Counted from the whole stretch's first letter, positions 6,267 through 38,593 are shown. The stretch is DNA of 59,532 nucleotides, filler included, from 9 parts of 9 records of this genome joined end to end with filler, not necessarily neighbours in it, one strand, 5' to 3'. Translations and numbers: made by a program. The notes: generated by a model from the sequence alone, not told the origin.

Positions 6267-7012
6267 TGGGCGTTCTCTTTATTACAGGTGCCACTTCAGG
6301 CATAGGGCTACAGTTGGCGCAGGATCATCAAAAGGCTGGCTGGCAGGTCATCGCCTGCGGTCGCAACCAGGCAAAGCTTGCTGAACTGAATGCGTTAGGG
6401 ATGCAGACTCTCTGTTTTGATGTAACCAACCCTGAGTCACTGGAGCAAGCGCTGGAGCAGGGAGATATTACCCAGGTCGATCGCCTTATTCTAAATGCCG
6501 GGATCTGTGAGTATGTTGAGCAGGGAGAGGTGACGGGCGAGTTGGTGGAGCGCACTTTTAATGTCAACCTGATTGCGCCAGTGAAGCTGCTGGAGCATTT
6601 ATTGCCGTTGCTGATATGCTCCAATCGGCCTGAGGTTGCTTTTATCTCCAGTGCTTCTGTCTATCTCCCTTTTGTGCGGGCTGAAGCCTATGGCGCTTCT
6701 AAAGCAGCGCTTCGCTACTTAAGCCAGGTGCTCCATAACAGCCTAAAGCCAAAAGGGGTTCACGTTGCCACAGTGATTTTAGGTTTTATCGACACCCCGT
6801 TAACTCAAAAAAATGATTTTGCCATGCCGGGCCTGGCAAGCGTTGAAGGTTCCAGTGAAGCCATTATCAAAGGCCTGGCAAAGCAGAAAGCACAAATCTC
6901 ATACCCTAAACTATTTTGTGGGGTGCTAAGTCTGCTTGAAAAGTTGCCCCTCTCTTTTAAACTCAAGTTAGCCGCCCGTATGGTTAAAGCTAACACCAAG
7001 GAAAGTGTATGA
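6266..7012 (+). CDS. Short-chain dehydrogenase/reductase
   Basis: ITGATSGIG, LNAG and catalytic YGASK. Confidence 0.92.
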   Translation: MGVLFITGATSGIGLQLAQDHQKAGWQVIACGRNQAKLAELNALGMQTLCFDVTNPESLEQALEQGDITQVDRLILNAGICEYVEQGEVTGELVERTFNVNLIAPVKLLEHLLPLLICSNRPEVAFISSASVYLPFVRAEAYGASKAALRYLSQVLHNSLKPKGVHVATVILGFIDTPLTQKNDFAMPGLASVEGSSEAIIKGLAKQKAQISYPKLFCGVLSLLEKLPLSFKLKLAARMVKANTKESV

Positions 7013-8259
7013 AAATTGCTGTGATAGGAAGTGGGATCTCAGGTTTGGTGGCCAGTTATCTGTTAAAAGATGATCATGAGATCACCCTGTTTGAGAAAAA
7101 CGACTATTTAGGTGGCCACACGGCAACCAAGCAACTATCAGGCGAGCATCAGGGCAGGGCCATAGACACAGGGTTTATCGTCTTTAACGACAGGACCTAC
7201 CCAAATTTCATCAAGTTTCTTGATAAGCTCGATGTGCGCTATCAAAAGGCCCAGATGAGTTACAGCGTCAGCAACTCTGGCAATGGGCTGGAGTACAATG
7301 GCCACACATTGGCGAGCCTGTTTGCTGATAAAAAGAACCTTTTTAACTTCAAGTTCTATCGCCTGCTGTCCGACATACTTAGGTTTAACAAACAGGCCAA
7401 AGCGGCGTTTGAACAGGGCGATATTGATCCTAAGCAGACACTCGGCGAATTTTTACAACTCCATGGCTACAACGACTACTTTAAGGTCAATTACCTGATG
7501 TCCATGGGGGCCGCTATCTGGTCCTCCTCGATTCGCGAGATGGAGCAGTTTCCGCTGCTCTTTTTCATCCGATTTTTCGTCAATCATGGCCTGCTTAATG
7601 TCCAGGAAAGGCCTCAGTGGTATGTGATTCAGGGCGGCTCTCACTACTATGTGCACGCTTGGCGCAGTCAATGTTTTGGTCAGGTTGAGCTGGAATCTGC
7701 CGCTCAAAAGGTATTGCGTGGTGCCGATGGTGTCACTGTGGTTACTGAGCGTGGTGAGCTTAAATTTGATCGTGTCATCTTTGCCTGTCACTCCGACGAG
7801 GCGTTAGCACTTCTTGGCGATGGTGCCACCAATGCAGAGCACGAGATCTTAGGTGGTATTCCATTTCAGCCTAATGAAGTAGTGCTCCACACGGACACAT
7901 CCCGGCTACCCAAACACAAAGGAGCTTGGGCCGCCTGGAACTACATGCTCGATGACAGTGAAGCTAAACTGGCAACCCTTACCTACAACATGAACATTTT
8001 GCAGGGCCTTGACTGTAAAACCACCTATTGCGTTAGCCTTAACCAGAGCGACAAAATTGACCCAAGCAAAGTGCTGGGCCGGTTTCACTATGATCACCCT
8101 GTCTTTAATTTGCAAAGTTTTCAGGCACAACAGCGTAAGCCTGAGATCCAGGGGGAGCAGCTAAGCTACTTTTGTGGTGCTTACTGGTATAACGGCTTTC
8201 ACGAAGATGGCGTCCGCTCTGCGCTGGATGTGGTTAAAGCCATTGGCGGTAAAGGTTTG
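7009..8259 (+). CDS. FAD-dependent oxidoreductase (amine-oxidase-like; RSP1091/UfaD-like family), reaching the contig end
   Basis: IAVIGSGISG, LGGHT, IDTGFIVFNDRTYPNF, AIWS, WAAWNY, GAYWYNGFHEDG. Confidence 0.9.
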
Positions 8260-8359
8260 NNNNNNNNNNNNNNNNNNNNNNNNNNNNNNNNNNNNNNNNN
8301 NNNTTAATTAATTAANNNNNNNNNNNNNNNNNNNNNNNNNNNNNNNNNNNNNNNNNNNN
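8260..8359. other. Artificial contig spacer N44-TTAATTAATTAA-N44; identical copies at 13588-13687, 20449-20548, 26371-26470, 32411-32510, 38630-38729, 47849-47948, 53734-53833
   Basis: Eight identical 100-nt blocks with stops in all six frames. Base composition and gene content change abruptly across each. Confidence 0.99.
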
Positions 8360-8648
8360 CGAAAAAGATCTTTCCATAAACTTATCCACGAATCCACTCT
8401 AATAAGAGCATTCTTTAAATAACTTTTCCAAAAATATTTTATCATTCACATATAATCGAGATTAAAATCATCTTTAGAGGTGGCTCTTGATATACAATTG
8501 CATTAATTGTATTGATTACAAGATAATCCCAAAAAGTGACTATCGTCCTGTGATTTAGGGACTATTATCCATATTAAGTAATGTCTAATATTGCTATATT
8601 ATTTTTAGGAAATTGAATGAGTATTTATAATTTAAAGGAGGAAAGAAA

Positions 8649-11600
8649 ATGAGATTGAAGCGATTTATATCTTTTGTAATGGTATGTATTATGATTTTTG
8701 CAAGTATACCAATCAGTATGGCGTCTACTAAAAGCGAGGCACATGTAGATGTTGAGAAACTTTTTAAAGATGTCGAAGTTGGTGAAATGAAAATCAAGAA
8801 AAATAATGGTCAACTTGATAAAAACGTGGCTTTTTATTTCAGTAATGAGAACAGTAATACATTTATTACTGATAAAGGCGAGATTGTCTATGATTTTTAT
8901 AATATTTATGAAATAGACGATGAAGAAACTCAGGAGAAAATTAAGAAAAAGAAAGGTTCAGTAATATCAGAGAAGCTTAATGGTGCAAATATTAGTACTA
9001 TTACAGCTTTAAACGTTGAAACTACTAATGTTAACTTCTTTTATGGAAAAGAGCAAAGTGAATGGATATATGGGTTAGAGGAAACAAATCATATTGCATT
9101 TGGTGAAGTATATGAAAACATACAACTTGATTTTAGGGTTAATGGAGAAACTTTAGAGAAGATCTTTACTGTTTCTCCTGGCGGAAGCCCAGATGATATT
9201 GAGTTTCAAATAAAAGGTTCTGATGAAATTTATGTTGATGAAAATGGGAACTTGGTGATCTTAGATGGTGAGGAACAAGTATCATTTTCCAAACCATATG
9301 CTTATCAGATTATTGAAGGTAAAGAAGTTGAGATCAATGCTTCATATTCTCTTAAAGATAAGAAGTATGGATACTCTATAGGGAAATACAATAACGAATA
9401 TCCATTGATTATTGATCCAGTGGCCATATCATCATATTTTGGTTCTGGTAGTTATAACAATGTTGTTTCAGAAGATATTGCAACTGATTCACAAGGAAAT
9501 ATTTATGTTACTGGTTATACAGATAATCCCAATTACCCAACTACAACAGGTGTGTATGATGAAACCTATAATGATGATAAAGATATTTTTGTATCAAAAT
9601 TCACACCAGACATGGCAACATTGATTGCATCAACATTTATTGGTGGTACTTCAAATAAAGATGATATAGCTTATGATATTGAGATAGTCAATGGAAATGA
9701 AGTCTTATTAACAGGTCAAACGGAAAGTTCTGATTTCCCAGTGACAACAGGAGCCTATGATGAAACTCTCAATGGAGCATTTGACATATTCCTATTAAAG
9801 CTTGATGATGACTTAACTACAATTAATGTATCAACTTTCTATGGTGGACCAGCATATGACTATGCATATTCGATGGTTGTTCATGAGAATGAAATTTACG
9901 TAGCAGGTGCTGCAGGTTTTGGTATTCCTATGCCAGCTAATGCTTATCAAAATTCTAATCCATCAGGAACAGACGCATTAATAGTAAAGTTTGATATGAA
10001 TTTATCTAATGTATTGGCTGCCACTTATATTGGAGATAGTTACACGAGTTCAATGGCTTATGATATTGAACTAAATAGAGCCAACGATATTTATATAACT
10101 GGATATAGTGCTTCGAGAGGTTATCCAACCACAGCATATGCATATGATGACACTCATGGTGGATCATCTCTTGGAGATGTTATAGTTAGTAAGCTAGACA
10201 ATGGACTAACAACGATGTTGGCTTCTACATTTATTGGAGACAGTGGCAATGACTATGGTCATTCAATTGATATCACCTCAGATGGTACCGTTTATGTAGT
10301 TGGCGAAACAACTTCCGCAGCTTTCCCAATCACTCAAGGAGCTTATCAAACAAGTTTTGGAACAAACACGTCTGGATTTATCAGCAAGTTATCTGGAGAC
10401 CTTTCTAGACTAGAGAAAGGCACTTTTTTAAGTGGCAGTAATTCCATAAAAGTATATGAAATTCAAATCGATTCTGCTGGCTATATAAATATTGCAGGTA
10501 GAGTTGATGCAACTGATTTTGAAGTAACTCAAGACGCATTCGATTCCACCCCACTTTACTCTGGAGAAGCATTTTTTACAAGGATGGATAGTGACTTAAC
10601 AACTTTTCTTGAATCTACTTATCTAGGTGGAAATGGCAAAGAAGAGTGCTTTGGTATGTATATGGACGAAAGTGAAAACATATTTTTGACTGGCTATAGT
10701 AGAGCTTTAGATTTCCCGACAACATCAGGAGTGTACTCTACATCTGGTCCTGGTGGATATGTCGTAAAGATTGAAAGACCTCTAATAGGTTCAGGTGCTG
10801 TTCCATATATGGTTGCTAATGGACCAAAAGAATTAAAAGGGCAAGAATCTGGTGAAGTAGTAAAGAATCTAGGAGCTTATAAAACGGATTTTGATTTAAT
10901 AACAGTATTTGGTGCTATTCCACTTACTTTCAATATTGAACACCATTCTTTGATACTTGAATCAGGGTACTTGGGTAACGGATGGCAGCATAATTATTTA
11001 ATGGAGATTGAAAGTGAAAGTGAGAGTGGTGCTACACTTAAACTAAATGATAATGAAATTGTAGAGTTCCAAAAGGATTCAACTGGAAAAATCACAGGTA
11101 TTCAAGAAGAATACTTTGGAGTAGAGTTCATTGATAATGGTGATGGAACTTTTACAATTAAAACACGAGATAATGATAAATATCACTTTACGTCAGATTA
11201 TCTTTTAAGTTCATTTGAGAACAAGCATGGACAATCAGTCAATATCTCTAGAGATGCAAACAATCGTGTGGAGTATATAACAGACCAAATTACCGGTAAG
11301 TATCTAAAGCTTTCATATGATACTAACAACCGCATTTCGACCATTTCTGATAATTCTGCCACTAGAACAATAACGTTAGCATATGATGTAGATAATAATT
11401 TGACGATGATAACTGATTTGAATGGTGAGGAATGGAGATTTGACTACTCAAGCGATAATAAGATTACAAAGTTAAGAGATCCAGAACTGTCCCAGGTCTA
11501 TGAAATAACTTATGATTCAGATGGTTTAGTTTCAACAATAGATGATGGAAGATCAGATAATCTACTTAGAACGTTCACTTATGATTTAGATACGTATCCA

Positions 11601-30613: not shown

Positions 30614-31317
30614 ATGAAAAACAATATCCTAATCATTGATGATGATGAAAGCATTATTGATATAATAGAAATATACTTAACAAATGAAGGGTACAAGGTA
30701 TATACTGCAACAAGTGGTGAAGCAGGGTTAAATATATTGCTTGAGCAAAGCATGGATCTTGTAGTTCTGGATATTATGATGTCTGGAATCGATGGTTTAA
30801 AAGTATGTAAAGAAATTCGGAAAGATAATAATATCCCGATTATATTTTTAAGTGCGAAATCTGAAGATATCGATAAAATTTTGGGGCTTGGTATTGGAGC
30901 AGATGATTATATGACCAAGCCATTTAACCCAATGGAGCTAATCGCGCGAGTTAAATCGAATTTGAGAAGATACCTGCACTATAAACAACCTGAAAGTAAA
31001 GAAGAATATGAAAGTATAGTTGCCGTAAAGGGAATTAGAATTAACAAACACAATCGCCTAGTTAAGAAATTGGGAGAAGTGATAGATTTGACACCGACTG
31101 AATATGACATATTGCTTTTGCTTGCGGAGAATAAAGGGAAAGTTCTAAGTTCGGAGGAAGTTTTTGAACATGTTTGGAAGGAAAATATCTTGAATCCAAT
31201 AACACAATTATGGTGCATATATGGCGCTTAAGAGAAAAAATAGAGGATAATCCAAAGCAACCAAAGATTATTGAAACAGTATGGGGGGTGGGATATAAAA
31301 TTGAAAAAGAAGATTAA
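30614..31317 (+). CDS. OmpR-family response regulator (1-nt frameshift near 31183)
   Basis: Receiver domain IDDD, LDIMM, LSAK, GADDY.TKPF. Adding one A restores [39 protein letters not shown] with TAA at 31315-17. Confidence 0.93.
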
Positions 31318-33288: not shown

Positions 33289-33381
33289 ATATAATGTCTG
33301 GTGAAATGGAATTGTTAAAATTGGGATATGTCTGTTTTTAACCGTGAGAGAGCTTGCCAGAGCAACACCAAAGATAATTTT

Positions 33382-33483
33382 ACAATAATAATAAGCTGTA
33401 ATCATAAAAAACAATAAAAAAGTATTGTAAAATAGGAAAACAATATTAAATTATTGTTGTGTAATTAGCAAAAATATTATTGT
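33382..33483. promoter_or_regulatory. Array of ACAATA-N6-TATTGT palindromes with 29-bp period
   Basis: Copies start at 33382 (degenerate right half), 33411 and 33440. A fourth half-site TATTGT lies at 33478-83, just before the SatD RBS. Confidence 0.7.
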
Positions 33484-33502
33484 AAAAAGAGGGGATATTG
33501 AG

Positions 33503-34159
33503 TTGAAGACAAACCATTATTTTGTTTTGATTCTTGATATTGTCGAGTCATCAAAATTACGGGACAGAGGAAAACTCACGGAAATGCTGAATGCTGCCAT
33601 AGTTGAGGCAAATAAAAAGTATTCAAAGGAATTGTGGGCACCCTTTGAGATAACCAAAGGGGACGAAGTGGCAGCCGTGCTTTTATCTATTAATCAGTTG
33701 TTTGACATGATTACACTGTTTAGTGATGCCATTTACCCTATAGAGTTTCGATCCGCACTTGTTTACGGCAAACTCAGTGCCGGATTGGAAACGAAAAGAA
33801 GTACTATAATAGATGGGCCTGCTTTTTACCTTGTGAATGAGAAAATGATCCAGCTAAAGAAAACTCAAAAAACGTTTTCCTTTAACAGTGGATTGAATGA
33901 CCTGGATGAGGCGACTGAGGCATTGATGAATTTAATCTTGTGGCGATGGAAGAGTTTTAGTTCACTGCAGCGGGATATTATTCGTAATTATCAGCAGGAA
34001 AAAAATCAGGTAAAAGTAGCCACCTTGCTGCGGAAAAAACAACAACAGATTCAGCAAACACTTAAATCCTGTAAGTGGGAGATCCTGGATAATGCTGAAA
34101 AAGCTGTGAAACATTTATTTCAGATCATCGAAAACAGAATTTTGGTCGAGGGGGATTAG
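33503..34159 (+). CDS. SatD family protein (cyclase-like palm domain plus C-terminal HTH-like segment)
   Basis: DIVESS, KGDE, DGPAF, and C-terminal QRDII....NQVKVA..L...QQ.I...L. Confidence 0.85.
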   Translation: MKTNHYFVLILDIVESSKLRDRGKLTEMLNAAIVEANKKYSKELWAPFEITKGDEVAAVLLSINQLFDMITLFSDAIYPIEFRSALVYGKLSAGLETKRSTIIDGPAFYLVNEKMIQLKKTQKTFSFNSGLNDLDEATEALMNLILWRWKSFSSLQRDIIRNYQQEKNQVKVATLLRKKQQQIQQTLKSCKWEILDNAEKAVKHLFQIIENRILVEGD

Positions 34160-34533
34160 ATGATTGGTTTTTTTTGACATTATTTATTCTCATTTGTGGT
34201 TATGCTGGCGGTTTTTATTTAGGTAGTGTATTACTGCGTCGAATTTTAAGATTTGTTGATCCGGAGATTGTAACAAAACCTTTTTACAGGGCCGGACTGG
34301 ATTTTCATGACATTGGTCTTTGGATCGGTTTATGTGAGCATTTTATGATCGTGACATTTGTAATCATGAATGAATATACAGCCATTGGGCTGATCTTTGC
34401 AGCGAAAAGCCTTGTTCGAACCGAACTTATACGTAAAAATCCTTCTTATTATCTGTTGGGAACGTTGCTGAGCGTCTCTTTTGCTATTTTGTTTGGCTTG
34501 CTTACGCAAATAGCACTCTGTAAGCTAACGTAA
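34160..34533 (+). CDS. DUF3307-like membrane protein (likely ATG 34160 with a T-run deletion; ORF track starts at 34174)
   Basis: G.WIG.CE......F.....YTAIG.IFAAKS..R.......YYL.GTLLS, the conserved C-terminal motif of membrane proteins that follow SatD genes. Confidence 0.7.
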
Positions 34534-37342: not shown

Positions 37343-38593
37343 GTGAAAAAATTAAAACAAACATTTTATATTCTGTTATTTTTGGTTGGAACCACTTTTT
37401 CCCAATCAGACACACTAAGGATTGCCAGCTATAATCTGCTAAAATTTCCTGATACAAATTATGAATCACGGTTGCCTCATCTTAAAAAGGTGGTCCAGGC
37501 AATCAATCCTGACATTTTTGTTGTACAGGAGATTGTTTTCAGACAAGCAATCGGCATCATCTTAAATGATGTTTTGAGTTACACTGGTAGACCTATGTTT
37601 GCAGCGGTGCCTTTTGTCGATGGTCCGGATACGGATAATGCCTTGTTTTATCGGCAGGATAAATTCGACTTTGTGAAAAGTGAACAAATTTCAACTGATT
37701 TGCGGGATATCAGTGAATTCACTTTACGATATATAGGTTCTGCCGTGTCACCTGAGATAAAGGTCTATTCCGCACACCTGAAAGCGAGCTCCGGAAGCAC
37801 TAATGAACAAAAGCGTCTAAAAGAAACGACTATTTTGAGACAACGATTAAATGATTTGCCATTTAATAGTCCATTTTTTGTCGTTGGTGATATGAATTTG
37901 TATTCAAGCAGTGAACCTGCTTTTCAGATGCTTACAGGTAGTCAGCAGGATAATGACGGACGCTGTTTTGATCCCATCAATCAGATTGGCAACTGGCATG
38001 AGAATTCATCCTATTCCCGCTATCATACTCAGTCGACAAGGACGACTACATTTGGTGATGGATCCAGTGGCGGATTGGATGATCGATTTGATTTTATTTT
38101 TATTTCAGAGGCATTGCAGGATTCATCTGCCTTTAGATATCTTTCAGGATCGTACACGGCTTTTGGAAATGATGGACTTCATTTTAATTATAATGTAAAT
38201 GATGCGAGAAACAAGGCTGTCCCGGATAGTATCGCAGATGCACTATATTATGCGTCGGATCATTTGCCGGTTTATCTTGATTTTGTTTATTCATCCCCGA
38301 CCAGGGTGTCCTTACCAAATAAGGGCGATTTTTATAATGATTTAATGCCAAATTATCCAAATCCATTTAACGCGCAAACGAGTATTCGGTTTTCCATTGC
38401 AAAGCAAAGTGATGTAACTCTAAAAATATTTAATTATCTGGGAAAAGAGGTTGCCACATTGGTTCAGGATCAGTTGACTGCTGGTGCGTATCAGGTTATT
38501 TGGAATGCAGAACATGTTTCCAGCGGAATTTATTTTTGCCGGTTGGAGGCGTCTGATTTCATGAAAACCCAACGCCTTATTTTGTTAAAATAA
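37343..38593 (+). CDS. Secreted endonuclease/exonuclease/phosphatase (EEP) protein with T9SS-type C-terminal sorting domain
   Basis: SYNLL, VQEI, HLKA, GDMN, DRFDFI, SDHLPV. C-terminal NYPNPFN..T.I.F...SSGIYFCRL. Confidence 0.9.
   Translation: MKKLKQTFYILLFLVGTTFSQSDTLRIASYNLLKFPDTNYESRLPHLKKVVQAINPDIFVVQEIVFRQAIGIILNDVLSYTGRPMFAAVPFVDGPDTDNALFYRQDKFDFVKSEQISTDLRDISEFTLRYIGSAVSPEIKVYSAHLKASSGSTNEQKRLKETTILRQRLNDLPFNSPFFVVGDMNLYSSSEPAFQMLTGSQQDNDGRCFDPINQIGNWHENSSYSRYHTQSTRTTTFGDGSSGGLDDRFDFIFISEALQDSSAFRYLSGSYTAFGNDGLHFNYNVNDARNKAVPDSIADALYYASDHLPVYLDFVYSSPTRVSLPNKGDFYNDLMPNYPNPFNAQTSIRFSIAKQSDVTLKIFNYLGKEVATLVQDQLTAGAYQVIWNAEHVSSGIYFCRLEASDFMKTQRLILLK

Follow-up and report, generated by a model that had tools for sequence, protein, structure and literature searches.

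The names SatD and SatE are said to derive from the sat operon of Streptococcus mutans, attributed to Kremer et al. in 2001. Full-text literature searches on SatD/SatE, DUF3307 and PF16264 found no study of SatD biochemistry, the matches being genome annotations and citations of the 2001 sat-operon paper. Several better described systems share individual features with the locus considered here. Palm enzymes, including class III and GGDEF cyclases, have their metal ligands on strand 1 and on the hairpin between strands 2 and 3. The transmembrane effectors of the anti-phage systems CBASS and Pycsar carry a nucleotide-sensing domain. In the regulator MabR, the A site of the palm-like domain is degenerate (HGTWL) and is judged non-catalytic. 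Here we analyze a satD gene and the small membrane-protein gene that adjoins it in a 59.5-kb stretch of DNA (the window; coordinates are counted from its first letter), together with related loci labeled L001-L046. A sequence-only reading of this DNA had proposed that the two genes form a second-messenger synthase and its transmembrane effector, laid out as in CBASS and Pycsar and possibly serving defense. Both open reading frames (ORFs) are present on the + strand where that reading had placed them, and its palm fold, helix-turn-helix (HTH) tail, membrane-protein pairing and operator array stood up to analysis, whereas the defense layout did not. With moderate confidence, we propose that SatD is a local and probably auto-regulating transcription factor for the membrane-protein gene, in which a dimer of palm domains would bind, and perhaps turn over, a Mg-nucleotide.

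The satD ORF begins with TTG just after a GAGGGG motif, and its product matches the Pfam SatD family (PF16264) over residues 6-195 (E 6.9e-17, 62.2 bits, cut-off 29), as do 133 of 134 aligned SatD relatives. The partner ORF also starts with TTG, 14 bp after the end of satD (Table 1). An AlphaFold2 model of SatD, built from an alignment of the window protein with 21 relatives at 42-56% identity (pLDDT 94.7, pTM 0.89), consists of a beta-alpha-beta-beta-alpha-beta unit (residues 1-130) followed by five helices (132-217). Within the first unit, D12 lies in strand 1 (residues 5-13), and G53-D54-E55 forms the turn between strand 2 (44-50) and strand 3 (56-60), a placement at the catalytic site that was judged by secondary structure and motif rather than by residue-level superposition. 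These residues belong to the motifs L-I-L-D12-I-V-E-S-S and K-G53-D54-E55-V, which had been likened from sequence to the two metal-binding aspartates of palm enzymes. The comparison holds for spacing as well as position: D12 and D54 are 42 residues apart, and the corresponding distance is 44 residues in 13 domains of class III cyclases (D15-D59) and 41-43 in 22 GGDEF domains.

A structure search against cyclase folds, which the sequence-only reading had put forward as a check, also recovered the palm. Foldseek comparison of the SatD model with the PDB gave 44 matches at E <= 0.001, with class III adenylyl cyclases on top (best match 5mbg, E 3.7e-5; Ma1120, 5d15, TM score 0.55 on the target, rmsd 3.4, 127 columns), and the matches included GTP cyclohydrolase III and a C-terminal fragment of MabR/Rv2242 (9f80, E 8.4e-4, 224 columns). 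In an all-against-all structural search independent of Foldseek, each of the 50 matches listed was a cyclase, GGDEF, Cas10/Cmr2 or GTP cyclohydrolase III palm. By fold and motif geometry, residues 1-130 are thus predicted to be a palm of the nucleotide-cyclase/GGDEF/Cas10 superfamily.

The residues of this predicted site are retained across a large family. A profile search gave 2,595 cluster representatives (50% identity) at E <= 0.001, and nearly all of the best 150 profile matches are 205-235 aa long. Among the window SatD and 134 diverse representatives (n=135, median 27% identity to the window protein), D12 and S16 were each kept in 133 sequences, G53 in 134, D54 in 133, E55 in 125, R83 in 130, D104 in 119 and G105 in all 135. 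Likewise, the SatDs of the 46 loci have G-D-E and G105 without exception and D12 in 45 cases, the remaining one being N-terminally unaligned. Because D12 and G-D-E are kept family-wide at ~27% identity, we read the two carboxylates, conserved across bacteria and archaea, as a putative metal-nucleotide site. Two tandem SatD-SatD proteins among the representatives (413 and 424 aa) offer a clue to how the site may be built. Their first copy retains D12, S16, R22, G-D-E, R83 and K119 but no longer has D104; in the second, the strand-1 motif, R83 and K119 are gone and the hairpin is disrupted, while D104-G-x-A-F-x-x-A is still present. Complementary decay of this kind is the pattern of C1/C2 pseudo-heterodimers in class III cyclases, and in the tandem SatDs it fits a composite site formed across a head-to-tail dimer. 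Among the seven longest of the best 150 profile matches (two tandem SatDs, one SatD-TPR protein and others with unassigned extensions), a SatD-membrane fusion was not seen, and no search aimed at longer proteins was made. Two acidic SatD proteins that look haloarchaeal by composition (P0214 and P0170) carry long C-terminal extensions, with TPR repeats in P0214 and unassigned in P0170, and so depart from the usual architecture of ~215 aa.

The HTH-like tail was confirmed at the level of the family: Pfam Sigma70_r4 matches 81 of the 134 SatD members (best E 7.4e-8), further HTH families are matched by many of them, and the window SatD itself gives a weak NCBIfam sigma-70 match only (residues 151-191, E 0.1). 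With an HTH domain and phased palindromes at its locus, SatD has the features of an HTH transcription factor and would be expected to bind DNA. Upstream of satD in the window, the palindrome ACAAY-N8-RTTGT occurs at 33382 (one mismatch), 33411 and 33440, in successive 29-bp steps. The operator array noticed in the sequence-only reading recurs beyond the window: 14 of 16 loci, GC-rich genomes among them, have the same element (<=1 mismatch) in front of satD, mostly with copies 29 bp apart. Across these 16 loci there were 35 hits in 4,160 bp upstream of satD, compared with 29 hits in 178,408 bp elsewhere (~52-fold). More distant loci (L017-L046) have the window-type operator upstream of satD in only 2 of 30 cases, with one mismatch each, and carry palindromes of their own, such as GTTATCA-N6-TGATAAC, ATAGCC-N6-GGCTAT, GTCAACC-N6-GGTTGAC and GTAAGG-N8-CCTTAC, in 2-4 copies 28-30 bp apart.

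The phasing is also evident when the sequence of the arms is disregarded. A sequence-blind detector (6-nt arms, spacer of 4-8 nt, two like copies 27-32 bp apart) applied to 46 loci found phased pairs beside satD or the partner gene in 30 of them, with 51 hits in 24,570 bp beside the genes and 7 hits in 209,504 bp elsewhere. Measured from the satD start, all 7 outside hits fall at 586-701 bp, which in a gene of ~630-650 bp is at or close to the 3' end, and they belong to loci in which the partner is absent or the window was tightly drawn. Array position follows gene layout: where the gap between satD and the partner gene is at least ~60 bp, the array sits in the gap (23 loci), and where the genes abut, as in the window, it sits upstream of satD. 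Upstream of the haloarchaeal SatD/DUF3307 pair of Halorientalis there are four palindromes, arranged as two pairs with a 29-bp step within each. Genome-wide counts of exact sites in four genomes were 8 versus 11 in the control, 3 versus 9, 20 versus 24 and 9 versus 7; being at or below control in three of the four and about at control in the fourth, they suggest that the SatD regulon is local.

Further exact operator copies were observed just downstream of the membrane-protein gene (L004, 3928-3974; L007, 1359-1405; L005, 1528-1545), again 29 bp apart, so that arrays flank the cassette on both sides; looping or control of the next gene is conceivable. At L017-L027, satD directly follows a gene whose product has a UvrB-like end (judged by eye from the motif EFERAAELRDEIDRL); here satD is without an intergenic region of its own and the array comes after it. 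In the likely source run and in a marine-sediment run there are short contigs whose similarity to the window is confined to the operator region (33377-33514), over 35-45 bases with 4-9 differences, before they diverge, and similar arrays seem to be present at other loci or in other organisms of those two samples.

The gene that adjoins satD recurs at most of these loci. The sequence-only reading had remarked on satD abutting a small multi-transmembrane gene, and this pairing proved to be conserved, with the partner directly downstream of satD on the same strand in 14 of 15 loci, which come from named genomes across many phyla, and directly downstream in 25 of 30 loci of one phylum. The partner is a predicted membrane protein whose model (pLDDT 89.6) is nearly all helical, with long helices at residues 2-28, 47-64 and 90-118, and amounts to ~120 aa of membrane helices joined by loops of ~20 residues, with no soluble domain. 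Relatives are 49-72% identical to the window protein and the partner is highly conserved across phyla, with a mean column identity of 61% (53% for SatD) and invariant charged residues that include E55, K78 and R82. The window partner matched nothing in Pfam, NCBIfam or PADLOC; DUF3307 (PF11750) was absent from it at E <= 1 and from all 36 relatives at E <= 10. Foldseek found no PDB match to the model at E <= 0.001, and an ESM Atlas search returned unnamed clusters only. A complex prediction for SatD with the partner scored 0.00 and, being control-less, says nothing either way. In the phylum represented by 30 loci, partners occur as short forms of ~120-137 aa and long forms of ~250 aa, and the window partner matches the C-terminal half (~residues 130-250) of the long, SatE-like proteins, which have 5-7 helices. 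DUF3307 forms the N-terminal half of 3 of 9 long forms over the cut-off, with one more below it, and was found in 0 of 6 short forms; in the RefSeq annotation of the haloarchaeon Halorientalis, a "SatD family protein" overlaps a "DUF3307 domain-containing protein". Judged by homology, the window cassette is a satD-satE module, with a partner of which apparently only the C-terminal part is left, a part outside all Pfam models.

Exceptions to the pairing vary in kind. At L026, the ORF that comes after satD and its array is lipoprotein-like; at L018, the place of the partner is taken by a different ORF, which has three hydrophobic segments; and at L030, satD has an internal stop and adjoins an integrase-like ORF. 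L006, from a Pseudomonadales metagenome-assembled genome, is the single close relative without a partner, none being found elsewhere in that incomplete genome, and a DUF1631-GGDEF-EAL protein (6655-10488, - strand) is encoded there convergently on satD. In the window, the start of the membrane-protein gene depends on the length of a T tract. With 8 T, ATG 34160, directly after the satD stop codon TAG, is out of frame and the ORF opens at TTG 34174; with 9 T it is in frame and yields 124 aa, as in most relatives (120-124 aa). The 9-T version comes from one contig (depth 34) of the same sample as the window and hence is not independent.

Taken together, these features suggest a one-component transcription factor whose sigma-70 region-4-like HTH would bind palindromes of 18-20 bp. 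Their spacing of ~29 bp would put bound SatD proteins roughly on one face of the DNA, and through the array SatD would control the adjoining membrane-protein gene. Because satD and the membrane-protein gene abut in the window, SatD would control its own gene there as well. We lean towards repression as the sign of this regulation, because the array fills the space before the regulated gene. The palm would most likely act as a head-to-tail dimer, in which D12, G-D-E and R83 of one subunit may face D104-G-x-A-F of the other and hold a Mg2+-nucleotide between them. That the nucleotide is turned over, by cyclase or nucleotidyl-transfer chemistry, rather than only bound seems to us about evenly balanced; in either case, occupancy of the site would set the affinity of SatD for its operators. 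The membrane protein may be the output only, or may also be a signal input that feeds back on SatD. A bolder and more doubtful version, to which we give only tentative credence, makes SatD an active palm enzyme and repressor at once, a one-component nucleotide-signaling system spread across bacteria and archaea in which the array would couple synthesis to operator occupancy and the membrane protein would be output and sensor or conduit. SatD dimers aligned on one DNA face could then assemble or break head-to-tail palm pairs.

Several results weigh against the proposal that SatD is a palm-bearing regulator of its own locus. Scores in the all-against-all structural search (Z 9.4 to 7.1; best match with rmsd 2.4 over 110 residues) fall, even at the maximum of 9.4, in the middling range of the tool's own scale, and we find the fold assignment persuasive nonetheless because the list of matches is uniform. 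Profile comparison with hhalign detected no similarity between SatD and 13 class III cyclase domains (PF00211; probability 0.3%), and with 22 GGDEF domains the probability was only 27.7% (E 6.4e-4, 77 columns). The latter alignment sets K-G-D-E-V on G-G-D-E-F, pairs the conserved helix that comes next with the A-D-x-A-M-Y-x-A-K helix, and leaves the first 42 residues of SatD outside. A search of PDB sequences with the SatD profile found no solved cyclase (one chance row, E 0.97), and when Pfam families are ranked by how many of the 134 SatD members match them, GGDEF and Guanylate_cyc are not in the top 25. SatD thus seems weakly closer in sequence to GGDEF/Cas10 than to class III, as a member of neither Pfam family, and because sequence-profile support is weak, its assignment to the palm superfamily is based on fold and on the geometry of the motifs. 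Residues that specify the base or stabilize the transition state were not identifiable in SatD, nor was an Asn/Arg pair located; R83 is replaced by V/I or S/A in some subfamilies (two among the 46 loci); and the dimer clue comes from two proteins only. As for the array, the two exact operator copies upstream of satD, which are the only ones in the 59.5 kb of the window, are unremarkable on their own (9 of 100 shuffles reach 2 matches), the strict sequence-blind detector found no pair in 16 of 46 loci, and the + strand in front of satD showed no promoter of the sigma-70 type. Arm sequence differs by subfamily and tracks the predicted recognition helix (x-Q-Q-Q-I/V-Q with ACAAT; P-L-S-N-V-S-R-T with GTTATCA), but this co-variation is confounded by kinship and is suggestive rather than proof, because relatives share both features.

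The palm fold with conserved, catalytic-type acidic residues is also what a second-messenger synthase would have, and the structural matches include a Pycsar-type uridylate cyclase (8jsz, Z 7.9). Together with a self-contained cassette, variable neighbors and a patchy distribution (in one phylum, 55 of 167 genomes have it, and several matches occur in some of these), this could point to a CBASS- or Pycsar-like anti-phage or abortive-infection pair in which SatD makes the messenger and the membrane protein is the effector. We consider this unlikely. Neither SatD nor the partner matches any PADLOC model at E <= 1, and the enrichment near defense genes that the sequence-only reading had proposed as a check did not appear: 74 of 85 neighboring proteins in 16 loci were without a PADLOC match and no complete system was present. 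For the remaining 11, the match mostly reflects a generic domain (UvrD-type and DEAD helicases, AAA, methyltransferases, a kinase, radical SAM), the possibly real defense proteins among the neighbors being IetA-like in L001 (2e-19) and MkoA-like in L011 (1e-49), and Pfam shows the neighbors of satD to be variable and mostly housekeeping. Relatives were not confirmed in any viral contig or found in phage records, and only two plasmid-collection records match, of which one is a replicon of 2.1 Mb. With ~120 aa of membrane helices and short loops, the partner leaves no space for a sensor domain, and it is better conserved than SatD, which is unexpected for a membrane-disrupting effector. Lastly, the HTH and the arrays suggest that SatD regulates the partner gene.

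Multi-copy operators before a small membrane-protein gene imply tight local control, which would also suit a toxin-antitoxin-like or stress kill-switch, in which SatD only represses a toxic membrane protein and the palm, performing no nucleotide chemistry, serves to bind a protein or a ligand. Such an arrangement would accord with the patchy distribution and the multiple matches per genome, and non-catalytic palm-like domains do occur in regulators, MabR being an example. It is nevertheless improbable in our view, as it is hard to see, without a metal or nucleotide site, why bacterial and archaeal members of such low identity should all over the family have kept D12 and G-D-E, and a partner that is highly conserved across phyla and often forms the C-terminal half of ~250-aa, 5-7-helix SatE-like proteins, a few with DUF3307, is unlike small toxins. 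We regard as very improbable indeed the idea that the palindromes act in RNA, as hairpins or attenuators, or bind another host factor while the SatD HTH has a different target. In 23 loci, the array sits between co-directional genes and would be transcribed if these are co-transcribed, and neighboring arms of the spacer-7 palindromes can pair with each other. However, all copies within a locus have the same arms and a fixed phase of 28-30 bp, which a protein site, not a hairpin, needs; loci with abutting genes have the array in promoter space upstream of satD; arm sequence changes with the SatD recognition helix; and no DNA-binding protein other than SatD is found at these loci throughout.

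Table 1. Coordinates of the satD cassette and its operator array in the window
Feature	Position	Strand	Description
Operator copy 1	33382..33399		ACAATAATAATAAGCTGT; 1 mismatch to ACAAY-N8-RTTGT; 29 bp before copy 2
Operator copy 2	33410..33429		20-bp palindrome AACAATAAAAAAGTATTGTA; exact core 33411-33428
Operator copy 3	33439..33458		20-bp palindrome AACAATATTAAATTATTGTT; exact core 33440-33457
Additional right half-site	33475..33487		TATTATTGTAAAA; inverted partner of 33378-33390; full palindrome absent
satD	33503..34159	+	218 aa; SatD family PF16264
Predicted palm domain (residues 1-130)	33503..33892	+	beta-alpha-beta-beta-alpha-beta; D12, S16, R22, G53-D54-E55, R83, D104-G105
Helical C-terminal domain (residues 132-217)	33896..34153	+	sigma-70 region-4-like HTH; likely recognition helix ~residues 178-190
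Poly-T tract	34168..34175	+	8 T here; 9 T in a second assembly made from the likely source run
Membrane partner	34174..34533	+	119 aa; 124 aa from ATG 34160 if 9 T; homologous to C-terminal half of SatE-like proteins

The wider surroundings of the cassette in the window include, by Pfam, an O-methyltransferase and a kinase of the PEP-synthase-regulator type; a two-component pair and a small heat-shock protein are also nearby, as judged by reading. The response-regulator gene upstream of satD appears to be split into two overlapping ORFs (30614-31231 and 31174-31317), of which 31174-31317 appears to hold the end of a winged-helix domain, and a frameshift or assembly error is possible. Further along, the ORF at 37343-38593 ends in a segment that we take to resemble a type IX secretion sorting domain, a hint as to what kind of organism the DNA is from.

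The SatD family, which is large and extends to a haloarchaeon, now has an anatomy, comprising a predicted palm with putative metal-binding residues, a fused HTH and an operator signature. If the palm is active, the family would represent a nucleotide-signaling enzyme wired directly to DNA; if it only binds, a new family of nucleotide-sensing regulators. Either way, the operator rule predicts the binding sites of many uncharacterized regulators. Palm enzymes and palm-HTH regulators are already known, and what is new here is the family-wide signature of phased palindromic operators at a conserved membrane-protein gene.

Comparison with described systems links the cassette to S. mutans SatD/SatE by family membership, since SatD belongs to PF16264 and the partner is homologous to the C-terminal half of long SatE-like forms, although the window partner is without the DUF3307 half and without any Pfam match. 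The resemblance to CBASS and Pycsar is one of layout only, a nucleotide-cyclase-like gene beside a membrane-protein gene; here the partner has no sensor domain, the context is not a defense island and SatD bears an HTH and would control the partner gene. Class III cyclases, including the Pycsar-type pyrimidine cyclases, provide the best Foldseek matches of SatD (E 3.7e-5 to 1e-3), but profile similarity to them is absent. GGDEF cyclases (PF00990) share with SatD the palm fold (DgcZ Z 8.5, PleD Z 7.5) and the strand-1 Asp; SatD, however, has no Pfam GGDEF match, does not keep the first Gly of GGDEF, has no identified guanine-binding or I-site residues, and has an HTH as its fused domain where GGDEF cyclases have sensor domains. 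MabR (Rv2242), of the PucR/CdaR type, is similar in order of parts, with a palm-like GGDEF domain and then a helical HTH, and its C-terminal fragment 9f80 matches the whole SatD model. Both proteins would be regulators whose palm could take an effector, and SatD differs in keeping G-D-E and the strand-1 Asp. SatD is also half the size of MabR and lacks its globin domain, and has instead a sigma-r4-like HTH, a fixed membrane partner and phased operator arrays.

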